A DNA stretch of 64,000 nucleotides from a virus: positions 1 to 64,000 of the IMG/VR virus record IMGVR_UViG_3300025933_000001, one strand, 5' to 3'. Position 1 is the first letter of the stretch. Each line of letters opens with the position of its first letter. Positions 93 to 40,291 of this stretch are shown piece after piece. Both the position numbers and the translations under genes were made by a program. Under the pieces are notes generated by a model that had not been told where the DNA came from, made no database searches, and saw only the letters and a program-made list of their open reading frames with translations.

Positions 93-121
93 ATTGTAGC
101 ATTACTATTACTTCTTGTCAA
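93..121 (-). promoter_or_regulatory. sigma70-type promoter TTGACA-17-TACAAT
   Basis: tgtcaa 116-121 and attgta 93-98 on the + strand, 17-bp spacer. Confidence 0.75.
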
Positions 122-13960: not shown

Positions 13961-13989
13961 ATTATAAACTAATGTCGAAGTTTTGTCAA
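13961..13989 (-). promoter_or_regulatory. consensus sigma70 promoter TTGACA-17-TATAAT upstream of the portal
   Basis: exact hexamers and spacing in sequence. Confidence 0.85.
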
Positions 13990-14019: not shown

Positions 14020-15471
14020 CTACGCACGAGGTACAGGGTCTGGTCGGGATAGGTCGGGGATGCGGAATGTTGGGATGGTGACTTGTCTGCACAAAGTATT
14101 TAGTCCATCACTGGTGGCATCGACTTGATCGTTCTTTTCATTTCTCCCTCCTGTGAAATATTCTAACTCTGTTAAGTAGTCATCGTTCCAACGATCTGAT
14201 TCAGTGTCCTTAACAATTTTAACCATGCCTGCTTCAGCTAAAGCACTAAACGGTAAGAAACGCTGCACTTTTCCACTGTGCCCTGACATCAACACAGAGC
14301 GGACAATTAAACCTGCTTCAGTTAAGGTACTGACAAAAAATCTGTTAGCAATAACTCCACCAGCACCGCCATCACGAGGAATTGTTACAGGTACATCAAA
14401 CCCGTCTATCTCCGCCATTTTTATGATTTCTCTTAGAACACCGTCTGGTTGTTTTCTGTACCTAACAACGTGCTCTATGTAGTAGATTCCAGCTTTGTCT
14501 CGTGAAATCTTCACCCCTGCAGTCCAGTCCGGGTCTTTATTTTGCTCAGAAACTTCTGTCGCAGCAATATCATAGCTACGAACCCTTGCAACCACATCAG
14601 TAGGCGGCTTATCTACAAATTCAACCCAGTTACGTGAGAAATAAGAGCTATTAGACGGTCTAGCTGTCCAACTTCCATAGAGGTATCTGTCTTTATTGAC
14701 ACGAGGTTGCGCTAAGAGATTTGCATAATAATCCGGGTTGTTTTTCATGAGTGTAGGATTATCAAGGATCGTCATAGGAATAAACCTGAAACTCTTAGGT
14801 TTAAATCCTGATTCACCAAGATCGGTGTAATACCTTTCCTTCAGCTCTTCAATAGAGTTGGCCCACTTAAGAGAACCATTTATACTAATAAAATACCTAG
14901 TAATATTTTCTGTACCAGGCTTTGGAATTCCTGTCTCTGGATCAAGGCAATACTCAACCCAGTTATACAAAAAAGAATTCCTATCAGGGTTTGCCGTCAT
15001 TGTAATGTTCATGTGAATTTTGCACTCACCACTACGTAATCGACTTAATAGGAACAGAATAGACTCTTCTGTCTGTGTCGCAGCCTCGTCTACTAATATA
15101 TGTGTGGCCTGTAAACCTTGCCACTCTTGTAAATTTTGAGGAATCGCCGCAAACTTGATCTCTGCACCGTTAGGGAAAATCCACGTCAGAGGTTGTACTT
15201 TCCATTCGGCATTCCAGTGTCGGTACAGGCGTTGAGATTCGTCCACCAACCCTCCCGGCAATTTTAGCAACGGGTAAGACTCGCGGACGATAAGCACACG
15301 AGCGGCTGGGTCTTGTACGTACTTAAGAGCTTTTAATAAGCAAGTATATGACTTCGATGACCCGGCACCGCCTCCGCACAACAAGATGTCCGTTTTGTCG
15401 TCTGTGAGAACCATCTGCTGCTTAACGCTTTTTGGGCCAAAGACTGTCTTCTCTTTGTTCTTTTTACTCAT
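14020..15471 (-). CDS. terL: terminase large subunit
   Basis: Walker A GGGAGSSKS, Walker B ILVDEA, TANP, RuvC-like YDIA...DPDWTAG...DQVDA. Confidence 0.95.
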   Translation of the reverse strand: MSKKNKEKTVFGPKSVKQQMVLTDDKTDILLCGGGAGSSKSYTCLLKALKYVQDPAARVLIVRESYPLLKLPGGLVDESQRLYRHWNAEWKVQPLTWIFPNGAEIKFAAIPQNLQEWQGLQATHILVDEAATQTEESILFLLSRLRSGECKIHMNITMTANPDRNSFLYNWVEYCLDPETGIPKPGTENITRYFISINGSLKWANSIEELKERYYTDLGESGFKPKSFRFIPMTILDNPTLMKNNPDYYANLLAQPRVNKDRYLYGSWTARPSNSSYFSRNWVEFVDKPPTDVVARVRSYDIAATEVSEQNKDPDWTAGVKISRDKAGIYYIEHVVRYRKQPDGVLREIIKMAEIDGFDVPVTIPRDGGAGGVIANRFFVSTLTEAGLIVRSVLMSGHSGKVQRFLPFSALAEAGMVKIVKDTESDRWNDDYLTELEYFTGGRNEKNDQVDATSDGLNTLCRQVTIPTFRIPDLSRPDPVPRA

Positions 15472-15485
15472 CCTTTGATCCTATA

Positions 15486-16112
15486 TTAATCTGTAATTTC
15501 TACCTCGTAGCGTAGCAATGCTTCAAACACATCAGCAGAAATAACATCCTTATGTTCCAATGCTGCAGCTCTTATTAATTCTTCTTTTTGCTTCTTATAT
15601 GCCGCAAAAGCTGCTTCTGGTGTAGAATATATCCCTATGTAACCTTTACCTTTAGTAGATCGTGATCTAGCAGTATTACCGCAATGTGCAACATACCCGT
15701 TCTGATGACTGTGAACTCCTATTGGGTAATCACCTCTAGCCGCATCAGATTTTGTTAGTAGCATGTTTAAACTGTTTGGCACAAAACGACACGTATGTTC
15801 AGAATAAAGCTTATTACCTTTTATAAGAATATCTTTCTCAAGTTGGTAATCCTTAAGACCGAATCCAGTCTGAGTTTGACACCATTCTGCGAACCACTGA
15901 AAATTTTTAAAATTATCTGAGACAGTACAACCTATGTAATTAGGTCGGCGTTTGTGCATTACTGGAGAATAGCAACGGGCTAACATGTTCTTCCACAACT
16001 CATATTCAGGAGTCTTGCGGCTCCTACCGTTAACAGTCATAGACCGTTTAAATTTTCCATTTTCACTAATACCTACACCATATACTAATTTCTTCATATT
16101 TTCCTCTATCAC
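15486..16112 (-). CDS. HNH-type homing endonuclease
   Basis: YGVG, YELWKNMLARCY, YIGCTV, LEKDIL, YSEHTCRFVP; AP2-like tail. Confidence 0.85.
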   Translation of the reverse strand: MIEENMKKLVYGVGISENGKFKRSMTVNGRSRKTPEYELWKNMLARCYSPVMHKRRPNYIGCTVSDNFKNFQWFAEWCQTQTGFGLKDYQLEKDILIKGNKLYSEHTCRFVPNSLNMLLTKSDAARGDYPIGVHSHQNGYVAHCGNTARSRSTKGKGYIGIYSTPEAAFAAYKKQKEELIRAAALEHKDVISADVFEALLRYEVEITD

Positions 16113-16223
16113 AGGCTAAATTAATGTGGCTATCTGTAGTGATAGTACAGAAAAGGAGCTACCTCTTTCGCCACGTAAAACGAAAACAGCCCACAACCTT
16201 TCGGAAGTGAGCTTTATATAAAC

Positions 16224-16296
16224 TGGCGGGCCGACAAGGAATTGAACCTCACTCAACAAGAATTTGGAGTTCTGTTGCCTCCCAGAGGTGCGACCC
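16224..16296 (-). tRNA. atypical tRNA-Trp(CCA)
   Basis: GGGTCG/CGGCCC acceptor stem, G discriminator and encoded CCA, T arm TGAGG-TTCAATT-CCTTG, anticodon loop CT-CCA-AA; D arm shortened. Confidence 0.7.
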
Positions 16297-16433
16297 ATAA
16301 TTTGTGTACATAGCCACGCTAACCTGCTAATGTACGTTGATGTGGCAACATTCCACATCTTCTCCACAAGCCACCTACACTAGTTCAGCAGCCACAAGCC
16401 TCCGTAGGGAGGATACTCTTTAAAATCTTTACT

Positions 16434-16556
16434 TGTCTAAGACTGGAATCGAACCAATGTCCTTATGTTTCCGCTACTTTGGATAATCACCGTGGCCTTT
16501 GGTGTAGTTCCCATTTCGCTACATTCCATAATACTTTACCACTAAGCTACTTAGAC
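16434..16556 (-). ncRNA. tRNA-like RNA with a 59-nt insert replacing the anticodon loop
   Basis: GTCTAAG/CTTAGAC acceptor, GCTT-AGTGGTA-AAGT D arm, TTATG/CATAA stem, ATTGG-TTCGATT-CCAGT T arm; no encoded CCA. Confidence 0.8.
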
Positions 16557-16760
16557 AAGATTAAAGCCTACTCCGGGCATTCCCAAAATAGGCTGTTACT
16601 ACGGTCTGTATTCTCTTTATAACAACTCCGGGTTGTCCCCTTCACAGGAGGGCGCTACGCTTTTTCAACAGCTTCTACGTAACTTTTCTTTATAGGAGAT
16701 TTTGGCTAGGTTCTCCGTTGACCCACATTTCACCAATAGTAATGCTACAACCAGTGATTC

Positions 16761-16937
16761 TTAAATTGGCATCTCATTACGATGCTTCCTACGTTTACCG
16801 TTTCTCTTGCCACAGACACGACATTTATCACCATCACCTACTACATCTCTGTCACAGCACCAACACCAAGTAAATCCTAGTCTTGGTTTTCGTGCCATTA
16901 AGCGGTTCAATTTTCTTGTTGGTAGGTTTTCGTTCAT
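16761..16937 (-). CDS. 58-aa basic Cys-rich (zinc-ribbon-like) protein, below the ORF-track cutoff
   Basis: MNENLPTRKLNRLMARKPRLGFTWCWCCDRDVVGDGDKCRVCGKRNGKRRKHRNEMPI; two Cys clusters. Confidence 0.55.
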   Translation of the reverse strand: MNENLPTRKLNRLMARKPRLGFTWCWCCDRDVVGDGDKCRVCGKRNGKRRKHRNEMPI

Positions 16938-16942
16938 ACTAG

Positions 16943-17122
16943 CTATGACTCAATCTCTCCAGCCTCAAGCTTACGCCTAATATCATCCAACTCACCACTC
17001 TTCCGCATAGCTTCCATCTTAGCTTCTACTTCTGCTGCGGTTTCAGGATACATCTCATACAAATGGCTTTTCAATTTATGTGCAAGCTCTACAGCGTAAT
17101 CTAGCTTCTCTAGTTTAGTCAC
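16943..17122 (-). CDS. 59-aa hypothetical helical protein, below the ORF-track cutoff
   Basis: AGGAGAG RBS, GTG start, (M)TKLEKLDYAVELAHKLKSHLYEMY...GEIES. Confidence 0.6.
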   Translation of the reverse strand: MTKLEKLDYAVELAHKLKSHLYEMYPETAAEVEAKMEAMRKSGELDDIRRKLEAGEIES

Positions 17123-17140
17123 ATTCTCTCCTAGTTAATC

Positions 17141-17336
17141 TGGCCCGGTGTTGTTAATCACAGCGTGGCCTGAATCCGGGGAACTGCGCATTCTTAAATT
17201 CATTGGTAGGTTATCCCTACCGAGAGTCCCGTAGAGCTATTCGTCAATAGCTTTCACCTGTAAATTCAGGCCATACACAGATCACCTGCACTCTATTTCT
17301 AAAGTAATGCCTCACAGGGAGAGCTTGCCGGAAATT
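17141..17336 (-). ncRNA. candidate ~195-nt structured RNA ending in CCA
   Basis: perfect TGGCCTGAAT/ATTCAGGCCA helix, hairpins AGCTATT/AATAGCT and GGTAGG/CCTACC, no ORF. Confidence 0.55.
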
Positions 17337-17343
17337 CTTTATT

Positions 17344-17384
17344 CCCTTACAGATGAATAAAATAAATACTCATTTGTAAGAGGG
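17344..17384. other. long hairpin between RNA candidates
   Basis: cccttacagatga...tcatttgtaagaggg. Confidence 0.5.
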
Positions 17385-17479
17385 CTGTTACACTACCCAT
17401 AGAATCACACGGAGGTTATCTTACGGTAGTACAACCATTACAAGCAGATTATAGTGATGCTACACTCAGGAGAAATCTT

Positions 17480-17633
17480 AGATTACCTCGCTGGAGTCGA
17501 ACCAGCTACTATGATCGCCACTCAATCCAATCAGAACTTGTCCGCGTCGTACTTAACAATAGTCGCCAAACAAGTGCACTTATCAGGCGTAGTTTGTCTT
17601 TCCCAGTTCTGCCGCCACCGTGGAAGGTAATCT
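17480..17633 (-). ncRNA. tRNA-mimic RNA (acceptor-like stem, D-like arm, T arm, large 5' domain, no anticodon arm)
   Basis: AGATTACCTT/GAGGTAATCT terminal stem, GCTGG-TTCGACT-CCAGC T arm, GATT-GAGTGGC-GATC arm, CAGAACT/AGTTCTG helix; starts just after a consensus promoter. Confidence 0.7.
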
Positions 17634-17648
17634 CTACAACATATTCGT

Positions 17649-17677
17649 ATTATAAGATCGCTACTTAACTTTGTCAA
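17649..17677 (-). promoter_or_regulatory. consensus sigma70 promoter TTGACA-17-TATAAT heading the RNA cluster
   Basis: exact hexamers and spacing. Confidence 0.85.
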
Positions 17678-17701
17678 TAGATGATCTTGACGAAGGAAAG
17701 A

Positions 17702-18040
17702 TCAGACTTCACGAATCGTATCAAAATCCAACGCAGGCGTACTATCTGTCTCTTCTGCTGTACTACCCCTACCAATCAACTTACCACCACTGCCGATCTT
17801 ATACTCTGCCACCAAACGTGCCATCTCATCGGCATTAATCTGCTTTACTACACTACTCTGCAACTCTAAGGTCTTCAAAGCGTACTCTGCTTTAGTTTTA
17901 AGCGGAATATCCTCACTCTCAAAAAGCTCATCTAGCACCTTCAGCACCGTAGGATTCATCTTTTCCAACGACTTAAGCATTTTATCTAACTCATGCTTCT
18001 TCTTGATGAACGTAAGCTCTTTAGCTACTAATCCAGTCAT
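17702..18040 (-). CDS. putative terminase small subunit
   Basis: 112 aa, helical, own promoter, upstream of TerL on the same strand; positional inference only. Confidence 0.45.
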   Translation of the reverse strand: MTGLVAKELTFIKKKHELDKMLKSLEKMNPTVLKVLDELFESEDIPLKTKAEYALKTLELQSSVVKQINADEMARLVAEYKIGSGGKLIGRGSTAEETDSTPALDFDTIREV

Positions 18041-18060: not shown

Positions 18061-18089
18061 ATTATAATGTCTTTACAGCAATTTGTCAA
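18061..18089 (-). promoter_or_regulatory. consensus sigma70 promoter TTGACA-17-TATAAT
   Basis: exact hexamers and spacing. Confidence 0.85.
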
Positions 18090-18115: not shown

Positions 18116-18144
18116 TTGACAGATAAGTAGCGTTGCTCTATACT
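18116..18144 (+). promoter_or_regulatory. divergent sigma70 promoter TTGACA-17-TATACT
   Basis: hexamers present; CTTACGTAAG palindrome lies between the two -35 boxes. Confidence 0.8.
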
Positions 18145-39514: not shown

Positions 39515-39800
39515 CCAAGACGCGCTTCGCATGGCGCTGGAAGAAATAAAAGACCTGTTACTGCTGGCGAAAATTCAAGGATCACGCAAGGACTGTAATG
39601 GGTTGATAGAGCGTGCCGAACTGCTTGTCAATGCTGCTCTCTTAGTGCATCCGGCGAGTAAAGAGAATATAAGAGAGCAGATTGTATCTAAACTTGAGTA
39701 TGCTATAGATTGTATTAAAGGCGATGAGTATCGTGCCCTTGATCCTATCCACGATGTTATTGACATAGTGAACAACCTGTTTGTAGAAAGTGACAAATGA
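39504..39800 (+). CDS. hypothetical protein
   Basis: coupled ORF. Confidence 0.55.
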   Translation: MTTNQDALRMALEEIKDLLLLAKIQGSRKDCNGLIERAELLVNAALLVHPASKENIREQIVSKLEYAIDCIKGDEYRALDPIHDVIDIVNNLFVESDK

Positions 39801-40291
39801 CCCTAGCCTATGACGCTATGATGTTTGCAAGACAAGTGCACAAAGACCAGAAGAGGAAATATACGAATAATCCTTACAGCGATCATCTTGCAGAAGTTGC
39901 AGGCATTGTATCCACTGTTCTTTCTTCCGAGAAAGCAATTGCTGTAGCTTGGCTACATGATTGTATGGAAGATCAAGGTGTATCATTTGATGATCTTTTC
40001 AGAATGTTCGGTATTGATGTTGCTAGAGGTGTGTTGGGGTTATCCGATATGGAGGAAGGTAATCGAGCACAACGCAAAGCAGCTTCAAGGGAACGTCTTG
40101 CCAAATCTGACAAATGGATTCAGACAATCAAGTGTGCCGATTTGATTAGTAACACTTCCAGTATTGTGCAGCATGACCCTAAATTTGCTAAAGTCTATCT
40201 GGAAGAGAAGGTATTGTTGCTAGATGTTTTGACAAAAGCAGATCAACGTCTTAGAAATATTGCTTACAGCCAAGTTTTACAATCTTTGTGA
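39797..40291 (+). CDS. HD-domain hydrolase, small alarmone hydrolase (SpoT/Mesh1)-like
   Basis: HKDQKRKYT..PY..H, WLHDCMED, IKCADLISN. Confidence 0.85.
   Translation: MTLAYDAMMFARQVHKDQKRKYTNNPYSDHLAEVAGIVSTVLSSEKAIAVAWLHDCMEDQGVSFDDLFRMFGIDVARGVLGLSDMEEGNRAQRKAASRERLAKSDKWIQTIKCADLISNTSSIVQHDPKFAKVYLEEKVLLLDVLTKADQRLRNIAYSQVLQSL

Follow-up and report, generated by a model that had tools for sequence, protein, structure and literature searches.

The question raised by this locus is what a phage transcribes from ~1.4 kb of DNA that starts at a perfect promoter, lies directly upstream of packaging genes and holds only small open reading frames (ORFs). The stretch analyzed, called the window throughout, comprises positions 1 to 64,000 of IMG/VR virus record IMGVR_UViG_3300025933_000001, which has terminal repeats and a length of 87.7 kb. 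DNA of this uncultured soil phage is present in rhizosphere metagenomes, and its nearest relatives in culture, whose large terminase (TerL) is 43% identical, belong to the Pseudomonas myophage genus Nankokuvirus (KPP10, PAK_P3 and relatives; ~88 kb). The first-pass annotation had described the locus as a promoter-headed series of transfer RNA (tRNA) mimics and other structured RNAs between a putative TerS and TerL. Its four candidates, all on the minus strand, are named here RNA 1 (17480-17633), RNA 2 (17141-17336), RNA 3 (16434-16556) and RNA 4 (16224-16296). The promoter, RNA 1, RNA 3 and RNA 4, a tRNA-Trp, stand after the present analysis; RNA 2 and the name TerS do not. At a rough probability of 0.6, the region is best read as a phage stable-RNA/tRNA operon of the kind found in phages T5, T4 and PAK_P3, in which a tRNA-Trp, two non-decoding tRNA frames, the two ends of an RNA conserved in related phages (R1, below) and two ORFs are carried and the tRNA shape serves as a handle for cargo.

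The unit is headed by a sigma-70 consensus promoter on the minus strand (TTGACA-17-TATAAT, 17649-17677), an exact match, as had been claimed. The window has three perfect consensus promoters where 0.05 would be expected, and the minus strand carries all of them. A predicted intrinsic terminator on the same strand (AGCUCAC...GUGGGCU followed by a U-rich tail, 16177-16213; fold z = -2.75) aligns with the invariant terminator of the R1 RNA of related phages. From promoter to terminator the unit spans ~1.45 kb of the minus strand, just upstream of an HNH homing endonuclease gene and terL.

Two of its RNAs, RNA 1 and RNA 3, are real tRNA-shaped modules without a usable anticodon loop, as judged by a match to the Rfam tRNA model and by a custom scan for stacked acceptor and T arms. 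RNA 3 (minus strand) is predicted to form a complete tRNA body in which the anticodon loop is replaced by 59 nucleotides (nt; 16468-16526). The body comprises a 7-base-pair (bp) acceptor stem, a D arm with GG, a 5-bp anticodon stem, a T arm with TTCGATT, and U8, A14 and G15-C48. RNA 3 aligned to the Rfam tRNA model (RF00005) over its full length (model positions 1-71) at 48 bits, with 59 nt instead of the 7-nt loop and with every core tertiary position intact, and it was the sole tRNA match in the region at the Rfam gathering score; no CCA is encoded. Standard ARAGORN returned no canonical tRNA or transfer-messenger RNA (tmRNA) in the window or in the whole 87.7-kb genome. RNA 3 was detected by ARAGORN solely with introns allowed: the call, 16433-16557, is 'Ser(gga)', contains a 52-nt intron and C33, and lacks a long variable arm. 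The earlier description of this element as a tRNA body with a 59-nt anticodon insert is borne out by the full-length Rfam match.

RNA 1 (~150 nt, minus strand) is predicted to consist of a 9-10 bp terminal helix stacked on a 5-bp T arm with a TTCGACT loop, with ~115 nt of other structure in place of the D and anticodon arms (fold z = -2.4). Acceptor and T arm alone are clear among its tRNA arms; there is no anticodon loop and no encoded CCA, and neither Rfam nor ARAGORN gave a match. The custom scan, which required a 7-bp acceptor stem, enclosing 60-420 nt, immediately after a T arm, was run on the whole 64-kb window with 20 window shuffles as control. Only two sites were returned, 17483-17630 (RNA 1) and RNA 3, on the same strand and both within 1.4 kb, whereas the shuffles gave 0.55 sites on average. 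RNA 1 was thereby upheld as a tRNA mimic without an anticodon arm. A 7-nt anticodon loop with U33 and purine 37 is absent from both RNA 1 and RNA 3 and present only in the tRNA-Trp. The broader claim, that no RNA of the series is fully canonical and that three keep the acceptor/T-arm elbow, is accordingly kept in part: RNA 1 and RNA 3 retain the elbow without decoding, and the tRNA-Trp is not a mimic.

RNA 4 (minus strand) is a tRNA-Trp(CCA) with the loop CUCCAAA, G73 and an encoded CCA. All cloverleaf arms are present in compressed form: 1 nt separates the acceptor and D stems, the D stem has 4 bp and a 3-nt UGG loop, and the anticodon stem is composed of 4 bp, a 1-nt bulge and 3 bp. It scored only 18.9 bits in Rfam and was missed by ARAGORN. 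Homologous tRNA-Trp genes of the same architecture, called by ARAGORN, were found in two related loci (L009 and L030), and all three share the UGG D loop, the bulge with 2-3 further pairs, CUCCAAA, G73 and CCA. The D stem reads CG,CG,UA,CG in the window versus CG,AU,UA,AU in the L009/L030 type, and the inner anticodon stem AU,GC,AU,AU versus AU,GC,GC,UA. Changes on both sides that keep the pairing affect the acceptor stem at pairs 1, 2 and 6, the D stem at two pairs and the inner anticodon stem at two pairs. Because of this common architecture and these compensatory changes, the tRNA-Trp is regarded, on comparative sequence evidence, as a conserved, clade-specific gene of odd architecture, and it is probably functional in decoding. 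The label 'atypical tRNA-Trp' therefore holds for a gene of unusual build; as a mimic it does not hold for a conserved ortholog with intact CUCCAAA, G73 and CCA.

The remaining candidate, RNA 2, had been described as a CCA-ended RNA of ~195 nt. RNA 2 lacks a T arm and continues without a gap into the ribosome-binding site of a 59-amino-acid (aa) ORF; it lies inside a structured leader of that ORF (17125-17440, minus strand). The interval 17125-17480 folds better than shuffles (z = -4.3). Comparison was made with a variant strain, a second, co-occurring strain in DNA run X2, in which 17271-17440 is replaced, 17142-17227 carries many indels, and substitutions on both strands of the GGTAGG/CCTACC hairpin break its pairing without compensation. 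The equivalent element of relatives, modeled as R2 (below), had no match in the leader or elsewhere in the window. This part of the unit is probably a fast-evolving 5' untranslated region or leader of the 59-aa ORF and not a discrete tRNA-like RNA; lacking a T arm, bearing uncompensated changes and being continuous with the ribosome-binding site, RNA 2 is not supported as a separate molecule.

Two small ORFs follow on the minus strand. The 59-aa ORF (16943-17122) has an AGGAG ribosome-binding site and no family match. In the variant strain its frame is kept over 152 nt with 0 indels and its start is changed from GTG to ATG; of the 13 differing codons, 7 change the amino acid, 5 are synonymous and one is the start codon, and the ORF is probably coding. 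The second is a 58-aa basic, zinc-ribbon-like ORF with CxxC...CxxC (16761-16937), which is called strain-variable because 18 nt stand in place of 16765-16970 in the variant strain. The statement that only two ORFs under 60 aa occur in the region is right for these two; a mechanically called 83-aa ORF (16116-16367) that overlaps the tRNA-Trp and has no family match is also there. Upstream of RNA 4 the minus strand holds a spacer (16298-16433) with the hairpins CCTCC-CTAC-GGAGG and GATGTGG-loop-CCACATC, the fold of which is not significant (z = -0.3); 16351-16458 is ~92% identical in the variant strain. The transcribed strand of 16100-17720 carries 9 copies of GTAGC against 2.5 expected, with 0 on the other strand, and 4 copies of GTAGCG against 0.36 expected, including one at each edge of the 59-nt insert. 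Ordinary D-arm or T-stem sequence of tRNAs accounts for some of these copies and not for the others.

The region as a whole is a cassette mosaic between strains. The variant strain skips or replaces 17480-17635 (all of RNA 1), 17271-17440, 16765-16970 and 16456-16669, and the blocks between the swapped segments are 88-95% alike. One such junction block (17441-17479, minus strand), retained between two joints, contains the motif TGTAGCATCACTAT (17451-17464). The 14-mer TGTAGCATYACTAT occurs in three exact copies in the window, at 95-108 (plus strand), 16736-16749 (minus strand) and 17451-17464 (minus strand), and five times with up to 2 mismatches, against 1.4 expected. Its copies in the RNA region sit in junction blocks conserved between the swapped cassettes, and the copy at 95-108 overlaps, in reverse orientation, a minus-strand TTGACA-17-TACAAT promoter. 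Possible roles for the 14-mer are those of a promoter element, a processing site or a site of recombination.

Part of the unit is present in environmental RNA. Four metatranscriptome runs, each from a different study, contain 11-13% of the words sampled from the stretch, and three of the four yielded one contig each that aligned at 100% identity: 16471-16686, 16497-16710 and 16470-16674 (216, 214 and 205 nt). Jointly they cover 16470-16710 only. Because the same ~240 nt was recovered in independent libraries, the cover is attributed to RNA and not to DNA carry-over, and this interval is taken to be present as a comparatively abundant RNA. The contigs extend from within the R1-like hairpin P2, past the predicted tRNA 5' end (16556), over nearly all of the 59-nt insert; joining the insert to the 5' half, they indicate that the insert is transcribed and unspliced in the molecules seen. 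No plus-strand promoter that could make them an antisense transcript was evident in the promoter scan or on inspection. The contigs of the three libraries include none over the other 1.4 kb (RNA 1, the 17125-17440 leader, the ORFs and the tRNA-Trp), an absence that proves nothing, as tRNA-sized RNAs are usually lost from such libraries.

Related loci were taken as those with a TerL 50-76% identical to that of the window. TerL proteins P0002-P0004, 74-76% identical, lie on short contigs, and an identical TerL was found on five contigs. In at least 20 related loci, canonical tRNAs (Thr, Glu, Trp, Gly and others) are located upstream of the homing endonuclease and TerL genes: L014 has Thr, Glu, a CAT tRNA and Trp, L009 and L030 have Thr, Trp and Gly, and others have up to 16. 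Nankokuvirus phages carry tRNAs and annotated non-coding RNAs in the same slot. DNA similarity of related loci to the 1.6-kb region is confined to short motifs, and word-7 blastn of the region against all collected related loci returned nothing past motifs of 16-21 nt. One of the shared words, the 12-mer CTGGTTGTAGCA, is common to the window, L010, L016, L017 and L028, and it led to a conserved RNA, here named R1.

R1 starts at CTGGTTGTAGCA and was found in seven related loci (L016:4541-4768, L028:4583-4807, L010:3588-3820, L009:5751-5978, L030:1150-1380, L012:5632-5976 and L017:4348-4649). Its length is ~228 nt in five of these loci, insertions make it longer in L012 and L017, and its 3' end is a 35-nt invariant terminator just before terL or an inserted endonuclease gene. 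Among its 59 predicted pairs, 17 show compensatory double changes in five sequences. A covariance model built from those five recovered the left-out L012 and L017 copies at 178 and 156 bits, full members scoring 156-258 bits. A pattern scan of IMG/VR added members in five more loci (L050, L052, L054, L061 and L062), three of them the same sequence, and the L052 copy also has an insertion; L014 has only the 3' half of R1, directly after its tRNA-Trp. R1 may act as a leader or attenuator for the packaging genes, or it may be a small RNA in its own right.

A second conserved element, R2, is ~98 nt long with three predicted hairpins, including a GGAATTC-centered palindrome, and precedes a small conserved ORF of the MSDNNTKTFH...NFDAIFGKK type in the phages that carry R1 (L009:5343-5440, L030:842-939, L012:5351-5448, L028:4266-4363, L016:4061-4158, L017:4230-4327 and L010:3349-3446). 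Neither R1 nor R2 had a match in Rfam or in cultured phages. The CUGACGAG motif of R2 was considered as a hammerhead and rejected on inspection, the GAA required after stem II being missing. The packaging region of this clade is also a hotspot for selfish elements: a group I intron (L016:6059-6278; Rfam, 61 bits) lies inside terL of one related phage, and the TerL proteins of others contain LAGLIDADG or intein-type domains (P0070 and P0094).

The window itself retains a remnant of R1 comprising hairpins P1 and P2 (16690-16754, minus strand), which begins with the conserved CTGGTTGTAGCA. The R1 model scored 13 bits on the window (E from 7e-5 to 0.03, depending on the search space), matching over model positions 1-62 and weakly at the terminator, with 163 model positions missing. 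The first two hairpins, the homologous terminator and the block after it are kept, and the center of R1 is replaced by ~480 nt that include both tRNA-shaped genes of that interval. The post-terminator block (GTGGCGAA ... GATAGCCAC, 16120-16176, minus strand), which precedes the homing endonuclease gene, is common to L016, L017, L028 and L029. Because only the two ends of R1 remain and R2 is absent, the slot in this phage is regarded, from these alignments, as a heavily remodeled version of the RNA-rich region conserved in the clade.

On the observed anatomy of the unit, the homology of its tRNA-Trp, the unspliced RNA over 16470-16710 and the cassette-like replacement of modules, a stable-RNA/tRNA operon would work as follows. 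Host RNA polymerase would start at the consensus promoter and stop at the terminator (16213-16177), in the slot that is occupied by tRNA genes and two conserved structured RNAs in related myophages of ~88 kb. The transcript would contain a decoding tRNA-Trp(CCA), two non-decoding elbow RNAs, the two ends of the terL-upstream RNA and two small ORFs. The tRNA shape may serve as a processing and stability handle for RNase P, for 3' trimming enzymes and perhaps for other tRNA-binding proteins, and the tRNA frame may present a swappable cargo RNA, the inserts being the functional parts, as has been proposed for the tRNA-like RNAs of T5 and T4. A more specific version, which is tentative and rather doubtful, holds that the RNA slot of the clade exchanges its modules (tRNAs, cargo-bearing tRNA frames and the ~228-nt RNA) as cassettes flanked by conserved junctions and that the abundant ~240-320-nt RNA is a functional chimera of R1 hairpins, a unique middle and an anticodon-less tRNA body that would engage host tRNA-handling or defense proteins.

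Several results weigh against a stable-RNA operon. The RNA contigs show no strand, true ends or levels; they cross the predicted RNase P site and end ~35 nt short of the tRNA-like 3' end, and no sign of a matured 123-nt species was seen in them. Loss of these modules in the variant strain is also expected of dispensable DNA. The 59-nt insert folded no better than shuffles, as did the 324-nt RNA taken whole. No homolog of RNA 1 or RNA 3 was found in any compared locus or collection: blastn of the 1.65-kb region against 50,697 cultured phage records gave no match, the insert, the T arm of RNA 1 and the variant junction were not found by exact-pattern scans of IMG/VR, two metagenome scans for relatives of RNA 1 and RNA 3 gave none or distant loci only, and a relaxed search of related loci for long acceptor and T-arm modules gave chance pairings inside tRNA arrays only. 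A search for antisense targets of the inserts within the phage genome likewise returned matches of chance length only.

Many of the same results are expected if the region is a decaying tRNA array, in which former ordinary tRNAs were disrupted by insertions and rearrangements, perhaps via the neighboring homing endonuclease, leaving transcribed junk and a surviving tRNA-Trp. The slot holds canonical tRNAs in relatives and none in this genome, the two mimics lack homologs, the fold of the inserts is not significant, the co-occurring strain lacks modules or has other sequence in their place, and the terL-upstream RNA of the clade is reduced here to two ends. Decay should, however, strike at random, and RNA 3 shows no flaw in its body except at the loop (48 bits, all tertiary positions kept); moreover, both mimics keep exactly the acceptor/T-arm stack, the stretch assembles in three RNA libraries, and the same design is a stable RNA in T5 and PAK_P3. 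Decay, the main rival, is on this balance considered unlikely. It is quite improbable that the stretch from CTGGTTGTAGCA to the terminator acts in cis, as a remodeled terL-upstream RNA controlling read-through into the endonuclease gene and terL with the tRNA-like parts as passengers. The R1 terminator ends ~22-25 nt before the terL start codon in L009, L010 and L012, and the first two R1 hairpins, the terminator and the post-terminator block persist in the window, but the similarity left amounts to 13 bits without those 163 model positions, and no ligand or alternative pairing was identified. A further perfect promoter is located between terL and the portal gene, and none is evident directly before the HNH gene.

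On one of two other readings, the tRNA-shaped RNAs are intron-bearing tRNAs that would work once splicing had removed the 59-nt and ~115-nt inserts; the intron-allowing ARAGORN call (16433-16557, 52-nt intron) and the GTAGCG repeat at both insert edges are compatible with this. The spliced loop would nevertheless be GCGGAAA with C33 and a Ser anticodon without a long variable arm, and on inspection no placement of the cuts yields U33. No group I match was found even at E = 10 by the method that found the L016 intron, a group I intron would be far larger than the inserts, the insert and the 5' half are contiguous in the RNA contigs, and no intron-bearing tRNA was predicted in any of more than 40 related loci; splicing is thus highly improbable. 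The RNAs might instead be anti-defense decoys that bind or titrate tRNA-targeting nucleases or other tRNA-binding defense proteins, the tRNA-Trp being a nuclease-resistant replacement. Anticodon nucleases recognize the anticodon loop, and because the two mimics lack it, this explanation fits poorly and is deemed improbable. In its favor, phage tRNAs are known to counter tRNA-cleaving defenses (PMC10264068, PMC11464382, PMC11555353). The anticodon stem of the tRNA-Trp is unusual, and in two studies the RNA contigs stop inside the enlarged loop (16470/16471), 1-4 nt from its 3' edge, a weak hint. A further point in its favor is an RNA-repair-type HAD_SAK_2 domain encoded by the phage (58340-58792, 100.6 bits). 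An HD_4 domain (39797-40291, 49 bits) is encoded as well, and both are confirmed as the domains that had been proposed. A search next to these genes found no RNA ligase or kinase, so the proposed link of the two proteins to the RNA locus stays speculative, and the want of such a partner near the HAD gene speaks against decoys. On either side of the HAD_SAK_2 gene ('Swiss Army Knife' RNA-repair type) lies an ORF of phrog_17693, and these two ORFs are paralogs.

The proposed stable-RNA/tRNA operon is set within a head and packaging module formed by the minus-strand genes from 18040 down to 129, the members of which include a 112-aa ORF, the RNA region, the HNH homing endonuclease (15486-16112; phrog_953, E = 4e-70), TerL (14020-15471, after the HNH gene; phrog_979, E = 8e-154, together with Terminase_6N and 6C), the portal, an S49 protease and the major capsid protein. 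The 112-aa ORF, which lies upstream of the RNA region and had been labeled TerS, matched no terminase family, nor any other family, in family searches; since no terminase family matches it, that name was a guess from position. The other perfect sigma-70 promoters of the minus strand are located at 13961-13989, before the portal gene, and at 18061-18089, before the 112-aa ORF, and a divergent 11/12 promoter lies on the plus strand at 18116-18144. As these promoters point both ways, the area around 18.1 kb looks like a divide between leftward and rightward transcription.

The locus adds an uncultured soil phage in which tRNA-like stable RNAs would replace the ordinary tRNA set almost completely. 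One of its tRNA-shaped RNAs is abundant enough to assemble from environmental RNA, its modules differ between co-occurring strains, and the two conserved structured RNAs beside terL in its relatives are absent from Rfam. Together with similar cases in other phage groups, it suggests that phages widely use an RNA design in which a tRNA frame carries interchangeable cargo.

The tRNA-like stable RNAs of T4 and T5 have been known for about fifty years, and their function is still unknown. Species 1 and 2 of the T4 tRNA cluster ('band C/D' RNAs) are of the same kind as RNA1 and RNA2 of T5. Both T5 RNAs are predicted to fold as an acceptor stem and T arm around a larger middle with no readable anticodon arm, and T5 RNA1 matched the Rfam tRNA model over its full length with an insert, at 24 bits (48 bits for RNA 3). 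In the T5 record (NC_005859), RNA1 (144 nt) and RNA2 (125 nt) are described as 'tRNA-like stable RNA with unknown functions', and RNAI, RNAIII, RNAIV and RNA2H are also listed. All six are interspersed with tRNAs, small ORFs, promoters and the HNH genes hegC and hegD, a layout that the RNA region of the window matches part for part. The window shares with T5 a slot in the phage tRNA region and an elbow that is kept while the anticodon arm is replaced. It differs in that T5 and T4 keep many normal tRNAs, whereas the odd tRNA-Trp is the only one in the window phage. Stability and processing are established for the T5 and T4 RNAs, not for those of the window.

The same elbow is kept, with the anticodon region replaced, in tmRNA and in the YrlA Y RNAs of bacteria and phages, the latter being circularly permuted relative to tRNA. 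tmRNA itself was rejected for the window: ARAGORN -m reported none, and the mimics have no G3:U70, no tag reading frame and no encoded CCA. No Rfam match at E up to 10 was obtained for group I introns, tmRNA, YrlA, hammerhead and other ribozymes, GOLLD or ROOL.

PAK_P3, the closest cultured relative, produces two abundant small RNAs; one of them, sRNA2, lies between two tRNAs and carries an 11-mer of the tRNA T loop, and it is a late transcript for which the authors noted the T-loop 11-mer only, not a tRNA shape (Chevallereau et al. 2016, PMC4933390). It occupies the same slot upstream of terL as the RNAs of the window. The sRNA2 counterpart of Pseudomonas phage vB_PaeM_RP11 (L043:3203-3326) is predicted to fold into a 7-bp acceptor stem, a D-loop-like linker, a long helix and a T arm followed by CCA, with a middle of ~85 nt, which is the same design as RNA 1; counterparts in GenBank relatives are annotated as 'putative antisense RNA'. 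CCA is encoded in sRNA2 of PAK_P3 and not in RNA 1 or RNA 3, and sRNA2 is late whereas the unit of the window is headed by a sigma-70 consensus promoter. No sequence homology of the window RNAs to those of T5, T4 or PAK_P3 was found among the 50,697 phage records, and the resemblance to the T5 and PAK_P3 RNAs is read as one of design and position, not of descent.

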